NCBI GenBank assembly: GCA_000004985.1 | Contig: GG738884.1 | DNA from: Naegleria gruberi | Taxonomy: Eukaryota | Length of the DNA stretch: 64,000 bases | Direction: 5' to 3' (one strand) | Shown: piece by piece, positions 8,572 through 10,560 of the stretch | Numbering within the stretch: position 1 is the stretch's first letter | How the letters are laid out: every line of letters starts with the position of its first letter | Program-made: the position numbers and the translations under genes | Notes under the pieces: generated by a model | The model's database searches: none | Told to the model about the DNA's origin: nothing | Seen by the model: the letters and a program-made list of their open reading frames with translations, nothing else

Positions 8572-10560
8572 ATGGAACCATTCGATGATATTGTAACACC
8601 AACTAAAATGGAGGCACCGATCGACGATTTTACATCTGATCAAACACCACAAACACCGGGAAGTGCTATTGATTTTGGAGCCTTGAGTGGATTGGAAGTT
8701 GATGTGGCTGAGATTGAAAATCCAGATGCTGTTCAAGAAAAATTAGCCTCTCTCTACAATGTAGAGGAGTGCTCTGATATTGTATTTATAGTTAGGAATA
8801 GAAGATTTTTTGCTATCAAGGCTCTTGTGTGTGGTTGGAGTCCAGTTTTCAAGTCAATGCTATGTGGAGAGTTCATTGAATCAAGTTTAAGAGAAGTTCC
8901 TTTGGATGATGTTGAAGAAACTAGTATGGAAATGTTTTTGAAGGTTATTTATTCTGGAAAGACTGGTCCATATCCAATTCATAATTTTGTTGATCTATAT
9001 GCATTTGCTAATAGATTTGAAGTTCCAGAAATTGAAAAACTCTGTCTCACTGCATTACAAGAACAAAATTTGGCCAAACACTTATTCCCATTGATTGATG
9101 CTTGTGAAAAGTATATTGATCTCGAAGAAATTGAAAAGATTAGAACCGAAGTTGTAGCCAAAATTTGTTGTGAATTTGATGAAGTTTGTTCTAGACCTGA
9201 CTTTGTGAATATGCGTATTGATTACTTGTTGAGATTCTTAAAATCTGGAATTATTGTCATTCCAGAAGATGTTTTATTCAATTCTTTAATGCGTTGGATT
9301 GTACACGATAAGGAGCAAAGAATTCAATACTTGGATGAATTATTGTCCTTTATTAGATTCCCAATGATGGAATCTGTTGCATTGACAGAAATAGAAAACC
9401 ATCCTCTTCTCCAAGATAAGATGGATGAAATGAAATCCATTATTTACGAAGCAATGAAATTCCAATTGAACAAGGATGCCATTCCAGAAGAAAGAAGAGT
9501 TCATGAAAACTTTAAAGAAAGAGAAGGCCCACCAGAGGAAGATGGACATTCCTACAAGTACAAGAAGGTCTTTACTTTGACATCTCTTGGTTGTACAGGA
9601 AGCGTCAAACCAACAAGTATTGGAACTCATTATGACAAGCATCTTTCCAAAGTAATTACTCTCAAGAATGGTATTCAAGAATGGAAAGTTCATGCTAGTG
9701 GAAAATATAGAATAACTGCAGTTGGTGCATCTGGAGGAATCAACCCACATACCACCAATACTAAGGGTGGTAAGGGAGCCAAAGTGAGTGGAATTTTCAA
9801 ACTCAAGAGAGGTCAACTTATCCAAGTATTAGTTGGTCAAAAAGGAGGTAAGTTGAACTATTTAATAATAATCGGTCTAAACAATTGTTAAGAGGATGCC
9901 ACAGGTAGTACTGGCGGTGGAGCTGCAGGAGGTAAGTTGTTCATTATTTGAATGAGGATGTTAATTAACAATTTTCAGGTGGTGGAGGTACATTTGTAGT
10001 GGATGGAGAATTGCAACAACCATTGATAATTGGAGCTGGAGGTAGCGGGGCAAATTGGTATTCATTTACCATCGATGGACCTGGTGGTCAATTATACGAT
10101 CCTTCAATTGAATCAACCAAGTCGGTTGAAGCTTATGCAGAAAGAGGAGGTGGCGGCGGTGGATTTTATATTAAGGGTGCTAATGGTTCATCTTGCACTG
10201 GTGGTGCCAGCTTTTTAGAAGGTGGGTCTGGAGGTACTAACTCAACTAGTACTTATGGAGCTAAAGGTAAGTAACACAAGAAATTTGATTGAATTGATTT
10301 ATTCTCTTAAAGGTGGATTTGGTGGAGGTGGTGGTTCTGAGCACGAAGGTGGTGGTAAGTAATTTTTTTATTATCCTATTGAATTATTAACTTTTCAAGG
10401 TGGTGGAGGTTATGTTGGAGGCAAGTCACTCAAATCTAATGAATATAACACTTCTCGTCCTGATTATGGTGCCTATTCTTTCAATTCTGGTTTAAAGCCA
10501 GAAGGTGAACCAGCTTGTCACGTTGGTGATGGTTATGTTGAATTTGCCAGAGTTTTCTAA
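8572..10560 (+). CDS. BTB/POZ + BACK protein with C-terminal ALK/LTK-type TNF-like and glycine-rich (polyglycine) domain; exons 8572..9847, 9893..9931, 9979..10266, 10313..10354, 10400..10560
   Basis: BTB signature: CSDIVFIVRNRRFFAIKALVCGWSPVFKSMLCGEF...LDDVE...FLKVIYSG. C-terminal matches to the human ALK ligand-binding region (from memory): YRITAVGASGG..KGGKGAKVSGIFKLKRGQLIQVLVGQKGGEDA vs ALK [67 protein letters not shown] vs [43 protein letters not shown] vs [22 protein letters not shown]. Terminal HVGDGYVEF vs EGHGEVNIKH. All four introns are phase 1, start GTAAGT and end in AG. Confidence 0.75.

Follow-up and report, generated by a model that had tools for sequence, protein, structure and literature searches.

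The ligand-binding part of the receptors ALK and LTK is a TG supradomain, in which a TNF-like fold is combined with a glycine-rich region (PF12810); structures of it include PDB entries 7nx3, 7lrz, 7n00, 7nx1, and 7lir. Fourteen polyglycine-II helices have been listed for human ALK (PMC13243192). A comparable module is known from a virus: the tail fiber protein gp24 of cyanophage Pam3 has been solved and carries a TNF-like plus glycine-rich receptor-recognition module that was likened to C. elegans ALK, and the variable distal tip of its glycine-rich domain was proposed to bind the host receptor (PMC9608196). In ALK, LTK, and Pam3 alike, the TNF-like/polyglycine-II domain (GRD) is the part of the protein that binds a ligand or receptor.

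We analyzed a stretch of 64,000 nucleotides from Naegleria gruberi (the window) in which a GRD is encoded together with a BTB-BACK region. The second group of described proteins that bears on this locus comprises E3-type scaffolds. In BTB-BACK-Kelch, MATH-BTB, and TRIM ligases, a substrate receptor occupies the position that the GRD takes in the Naegleria protein, and the C-terminus of such scaffolds is the usual place of substrate-recognition domains.

Gene structure and domain content of the Naegleria protein

The protein-coding gene occupies positions 8572–10560 of the plus strand, opening with an ATG at 8572 and closing with a TAA that ends at 10560, and these boundaries coincide exactly with those in a preliminary description of the locus. 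Read without splicing, the frame that begins at this ATG runs to a stop at 9891. Removal of four introns, with GTAAGT donors at 9848, 9932, 10267, and 10355, gives an open frame of 1,806 nt and a product of 601 aa, which is identical (100%, full length) to a Naegleria gruberi "predicted protein" at NCBI; both the protein and its three Pfam domains are already present in NCBI and UniRef. Exon 1 (8572–9847) is a single uninterrupted reading frame that encodes aa 1–425 and the first base of codon 426, and it holds, in order, a disordered acidic N-terminus, the BTB domain, the BACK domain, a linker, and the start of the ALK-like module (~95 residues). Downstream, and likewise on the plus strand, follow intron 1 (9848–9892; 45 nt, GTAAGT..AAG), a 39-nt micro-exon 2 (9893–9931; EDATGSTGGGAAG), intron 2 (9932–9978; 47 nt), exon 3 (9979–10266; 288 nt), intron 3 (10267–10312; 46 nt), a 42-nt micro-exon 4 (10313–10354), intron 4 (10355–10399; 45 nt), and exon 5 (10400–10560; 161 nt including the TAA stop).

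This sequence-derived model agrees with the four phase-1 introns proposed earlier, all of which are 45–47 nt long and run from GTAAGT to AG. The accompanying picture of an ALK-like module of about 190 aa, encoded by four glycine-rich micro-exons, requires amendment: four downstream exons do exist, but only exons 2 and 4 are micro-exons, and the module is present at the C-terminus but spans ~270 aa (residues 331–601) and, contrary to the earlier account, is not confined to the downstream exons, as it begins in the exon that encodes BTB-BACK. Because exon 1 alone holds the junction, the fusion of BTB-BACK to the ALK-like module is independent of splicing.

Proteins of the same architecture, both paralogues and orthologues, were found in N. 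fowleri, in Willaertia magna, and on a contig from an uncultured relative. The N. fowleri orthologue (P0002) is 65% identical to the N. gruberi protein from end to end, and its gene (L001 6001–8344) has eight introns compared to four in N. gruberi, two of them in common; introns 2 and 4 of N. gruberi fall in the identical alignment column and phase in this orthologue. Three of the four N. gruberi introns interrupt a glycine codon within a glycine run, which suggests that introns were gained or lost there. No further copy of the gene was detected by tblastn within the window. We also considered a gene-fusion artefact and rejected it, because a single exon spans the junction and relatives share the architecture. 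Sequence comparison thus indicates that the BTB-BACK-GRD gene is a real and conserved N. gruberi gene.

From N- to C-terminus, the protein consists of a disordered N-terminus, BTB, BACK, a short linker, and the GRD. All three domains predicted in the preliminary description are recognized by Pfam: BTB/POZ (PF00651) at aa 62–165 (8755–9066, +; E 2.6e-16), BACK (PF07707) at aa 187–273 (9130–9390, +; E 1.2e-14), and ALK_LTK_GRD (PF12810) at aa 376–595, where 46.6 bits (E 5.6e-12; curated gathering threshold 24.5 bits) are reached over profile positions 7–238 of 243. The entire ALK/LTK-type TNF-like and polyglycine-II module extends over 9562–10560 (+; aa 331–601 plus stop) and has all four introns inside it. 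The ALK motif blocks listed in the preliminary description are also present, namely YRITAVGASGG...KGGKGAKVSGIFKLKRGQLIQVLVGQKGEDA, GGGTFVV, and a terminal DGYVE.

When the protein was compared by phmmer to all PDB sequences, ALK and LTK ectodomain constructs were the top matches (E 3e-16). Two stretches contribute to the ALK match: aa 336–432, nearly all encoded by exon 1, scores 38.7 bits with a bias of 0.2 (i-E 4.6e-9), and aa 433–595 scores 26 bits with a strong glycine bias (38.9). Because the first stretch is compositionally unbiased, the match to ALK reflects homology rather than glycine content. An AlphaFold2 model computed from a 25-sequence alignment has a mean pLDDT of 83.2, with disorder limited to the first 47 residues, the linker at 324–330, and one loop. 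In a Foldseek search of the PDB with this model, the first 21 matches are TG domains of ALK/LTK (E 3e-17, target TM 0.72), which bears out the anticipated structural likeness. As in the PF12810 family generally, the predicted fold is a TNF-like beta-sandwich that bears a lattice of polyglycine-II helices, and glycine-rich counterparts can be placed for 11–12 of the 14 ALK helices, including the all-glycine core helices.

The BTB-BACK portion is closest to KLHL3, KBTBD2, KLHL11, and SPOP, all of which have been solved in Cul3 complexes, and the Foldseek matches that follow ALK/LTK are KBTBD2, KLHL22, and KLHL11 in complex with Cul3 (E ~1e-11, BACK region). Cul3-binding BTB domains carry a phi-x-E motif that contacts Cul3 in published BTB-Cul3 structures. 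The corresponding residues in the Naegleria protein, F101-I102-E103 (8872–8880, +), align with M-S-E of KLHL3 (4hxi) and L-S-E of KBTBD2 (8gq6). The motif is kept as F-M-E in most orthologues, and the proposed fusion to a Cullin-3-adaptor-type BTB is in this respect well founded, the region being of KLHL/KBTBD type. A strict KLHL/KBTBD assignment would also call for a C-terminal Kelch beta-propeller, for which Pfam returned no match; the GRD lies at that place.

The N-terminus is acidic, no membrane segment is apparent, and 19-residue hydropathy does not exceed 1.29, in agreement with the earlier statement that the protein lacks a signal peptide. The first cysteine pair, situated near the module start in ALK, is absent from heterolobosean GRDs in the alignments and is kept by several secreted GRD homologues. 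Presumably, then, the N. gruberi protein is cytoplasmic.

Directly upstream of the gene is a 707-aa ORF with a serine-rich N-terminus and no Pfam match (6282–8405, +), and further upstream two adjacent plus-strand ORFs (2393–3379 and 3450–4361) encode a PARP catalytic domain (E 1.3e-10) and a PBZ zinc finger (E 1.3e-4) and could be separate exons of a single gene related to poly(ADP-ribose). Downstream, two ORFs overlap in different frames at 10896–12100 (+), the first with an MSP domain (E 1e-6) and the second with a hydrophobic tail (LLAGLIILVIFAKF); they are probably one gene with an intron and look like a VAP-like tail-anchored protein. An Atg3-like gene (14119–15030, +; Autophagy_act_C, E 1.6e-64) follows the BTB-GRD gene downstream at a distance of about 3.5 kb, whereas in N. 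fowleri the Atg3-like gene (L001 1102–2043) lies upstream of the orthologue, about 4 kb away, an arrangement that we read as loose, rearranged synteny. The immediate upstream neighbor of the N. fowleri orthologue is a UCH ubiquitin hydrolase gene, which is not so in N. gruberi. On the minus strand, 5 kb from the gene, a 1,773-aa ORF (15813–21134) combines EGF-like and Ephrin_rec_like repeats with a C-terminal protein kinase domain and represents a genuine receptor-kinase-like gene, without a GRD. The remainder of the window includes an NYN-domain protein (21535–23487), a gamma-tubulin complex component (25493–27916), a penicillin amidase that looks unusually bacterial for a eukaryotic enzyme (29929–32829; E 1.8e-159), a BCAS3-like protein (53702–58075), and Vps35 (61808–63973).

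Distribution of the GRD and its occurrence on E3-type scaffolds

We scanned 1.84 billion representative proteins with HMMER using aa 331–601 as the query and recovered relatives in 2,464 clusters (50% identity) at E<=1e-3, with 530 clusters at E<=1e-10. Bacterial relatives include surface or secreted proteins that carry signal peptides, T9SS sorting tails, and Ig-like, HYR, and LamG domains; further relatives include coral PAN-domain secreted proteins, phage proteins, and giant-virus proteins. In score, the Naegleria GRD reaches 155–161 bits against bacterial GRDs (47–53% identity) versus about 62 bits against ALK. The preliminary description regarded the fold as a hallmark of metazoan ALK/LTK receptors and the gene as an extension of its evolutionary range. 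Neither view can be upheld: bacteria and phages are represented among the 2,464 clusters, and bacterial and phage carriers were known already. A fold so distributed is no hallmark of Metazoa, and the Naegleria gene does not extend its known range. The ligand-binding region of ALK would instead be one use of a widespread module common to bacteria and phages and not a metazoan invention.

This distribution also bears on annotation. UniRef names the Naegleria protein "receptor protein-tyrosine kinase", an assignment that we rejected as automatic mis-naming, since Pfam identifies no kinase or EGF domain and no hydrophobic segment is present; the signal peptide, membrane helix, and tyrosine kinase that define an ALK/LTK receptor are all lacking. 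Its Naegleria relatives and several phage proteins bear the same automatic name, apparently due only to PF12810. This looks like a systematic error in the databases, affecting proteins, phage ones included, whose sole link to receptor kinases is this domain.

In several protist lineages, the GRD is found repeatedly at the C-terminus of E3-type scaffolds. The BTB-BACK-GRD combination occurs in N. gruberi, in N. fowleri (two genes), and in Willaertia (at least four genes). A B-box and coiled-coil region precedes the GRD in Willaertia and N. lovaniensis; RING is absent from these B-box proteins, and hence not all GRD scaffolds are complete ligases. The full TRIM-like layout of RING, two B-boxes, and GRD is encoded by an intronless 635-aa ORF on an ENA metagenome scaffold (L002 2951–4858). 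This ORF adjoins a 1,715-aa ORF without a Pfam match, and its host could be a protist or a giant virus. Two environmental eukaryotic contigs encode UBA, Kelch, BTB, and GRD in an LZTR1-like layout, and BTB-GRD proteins are present in the metamonads Skoliomonas litria TZLM1-RC and Skoliomonas sp. GEM-RC; one additional BTB-GRD case was recovered with local BTB-BACK and B-box HMMs.

A neighbor-joining tree places heterolobosean GRDs with those of Flabellula and of uncultured E3-linked proteins, with human ALK far off, and places the Willaertia B-box GRD as sister to a Willaertia BTB GRD. The tree was built on glycine-rich alignments without bootstrap, and we treat it as a hint only; read in this manner, it hints that the GRD may have been exchanged between B-box and BTB scaffolds in Willaertia. 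The Flabellula sequence that falls near the heterolobosean GRDs comes from a EukProt transcriptome of the amoebozoan Flabellula baltica (P0080); it is a 328-aa GRD protein in whose N-terminus, which is possibly incomplete, no domain was recognised.

Literature searches on PF12810 and the ALK glycine-rich domain and on Naegleria BTB proteins yielded no account of this architecture, and the E3-linked, apparently intracellular form of the ALK-type GRD in several protist lineages appears to be undescribed. What seems to be new here is the use on E3 scaffolds, the domain itself being already known from bacteria and phages.

Candidate functions of the fusion protein

We consider it fairly probable that the protein acts as a dimer, serves as an adaptor of Cullin-3, and binds its substrate through the GRD, and we infer Cul3 binding, ligase activity, and the substrate role of the GRD jointly in this reading. 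The BTB domain would mediate dimerization, and BTB together with the start of BACK would dock onto Cullin-3. The GRD would then replace the Kelch propeller of KLHL/KBTBD proteins or the MATH domain of SPOP and bind the protein to be ubiquitinated. This proposal is made because the GRD sits at the place of a substrate receptor and because GRDs bind ligands in ALK, LTK, and Pam3. Naegleria genomes are reported to contain 9 cullin-family genes (PMC9928731). Against the adaptor reading, all previously characterized GRDs are extracellular or virion-borne, the N. fowleri paralogue P0004 does not cleanly keep the phi-x-E motif, and RING is missing from the B-box proteins of Willaertia and N. lovaniensis.

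BTB and BTB-BACK proteins also serve as oligomerization modules outside ubiquitination, which likewise counts against a Cullin-3 adaptor. The most serious competing explanation holds that BTB-BACK only oligomerizes and that the GRD acts structurally or as a binding part outside ubiquitination, for instance in a multivalent cytoplasmic lectin-like or scaffold protein. We regard it as rather unlikely, as Cul3 adaptors are marked by exactly this succession of BTB and BACK together with a phi-x-E motif, and the occurrence of the GRD on RING and B-box scaffolds and on LZTR1-like UBA-Kelch-BTB scaffolds points to ubiquitin pathways.

If Cullin-3 and TRIM-like ligases do bind substrates through the GRD, it would constitute a new E3 recognition fold made largely of polyglycine-II helices, and one that can dispense with the ALK disulfides in the reducing environment of the cytoplasm. 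A wider proposal, which we advance tentatively and hold to be unlikely, is that free-living protists from two or more supergroups, among them Discoba (Naegleria, Willaertia) and Metamonada (Skoliomonas), along with uncultured eukaryotes, wired a module of bacterial surfaces and phage tips to Cullin-3- and TRIM-type scaffolds, giving rise to undescribed intracellular E3 receptors that are possibly pathogen sensors. Were this so, the ligand-binding domain of metazoan ALK would descend from that ancient module as one of its extracellular branches.

A more specific version for the N. gruberi protein, in which it is an intracellular sensor or restriction factor whose GRD recognizes part of a pathogen (giant virus or bacterium) and whose E3 scaffold marks that part for destruction, is a special case of the Cullin-3 adaptor reading and overlaps it. 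Consistent with such a role are the placement of the same domain on TRIM-like and BTB scaffolds alike, the several paralogues per genome in Willaertia, the cassette exchange suggested by the sister position of the Willaertia B-box and BTB GRDs, and the variable distal tip of Pam3 that is proposed to bind a host receptor (PMC9608196). Between N. gruberi and N. fowleri, however, the orthologues are well conserved (65% identity), and the tree behind the cassette exchange has no bootstrap support; we therefore judge a pathogen sensor to be improbable.

Unconventional export or surface exposure, with the GRD binding an external ligand in the manner of ALK, bacterial surface proteins, or phage fibers, would accord with the fact that all characterized relatives are extracellular or virion proteins and with a signal-peptide-like N-terminus in about half of the non-E3 relatives, as scored by a crude N-terminal hydropathy test. 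By the same test, however, none of the 16 E3-linked relatives is signal-like, the one hydrophobic stretch among them lying inside a RING finger; the Naegleria protein has neither a signal peptide nor a membrane segment; and BTB-BACK, B-box, RING, and UBA are domains of the cytoplasm or nucleus. Export is on these grounds very improbable. An artefact, whether a chimeric model of two genes or a chance match of glycine-rich low-complexity sequence, could draw on the compositional bias of the second ALK-matching stretch (38.9) but is refuted as far as sequence analysis allows and can scarcely be credited.

Comparison with known systems

Compared to ALK and LTK, the Naegleria protein has no signal peptide, EGF-like module, membrane helix, or kinase, and its GRD is instead joined to BTB-BACK and presumably cytoplasmic. 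Within the domain itself, a 28-residue insert of ALK (787–814) is cut to about 5 residues, and the alignment shows no counterpart of the first ALK cysteine pair. The ALKAL ligands of ALK belong to vertebrates, and the ligand of the Naegleria GRD must for this reason be a different one.

The glycine-rich tips of phages (Pam3 gp24, PDB 7ypx; S16 gp38; Bxb1 gp33) are far more distant from the Naegleria GRD than ALK is; they are trimeric virion proteins with 10–12 glycine-rich motifs that act outside the cell. Bacterial secreted and surface proteins with PF12810 are nearer to the Naegleria GRD in sequence than ALK, but they carry signal peptides or secretion tails and no E3-type domains.

With the BTB-BACK-Kelch adaptors (KLHL3, KLHL11, KBTBD2, and KEAP1), the Naegleria protein shares the order of BTB and BACK, a similar length, and the phi-x-E motif; it differs from them in that a GRD takes the place of the C-terminal Kelch propeller, and its Cul3 binding is putative. 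A parallel to the wider set of proteins is offered by SPOP (MATH-BTB) and by TRIM proteins (RING-B-box-coiled-coil with a variable C-terminal domain), in that a shared recognition domain appears on varied E3 scaffolds. The B-box proteins of Willaertia and N. lovaniensis depart from the TRIM layout in having no RING. Across the scaffolds identified here, which comprise BTB-BACK, Kelch-BTB, B-box, and RING-B-box forms, a GRD stands as the putative recognition domain where SPOP and TRIM ligases have MATH, PRY-SPRY, or NHL.
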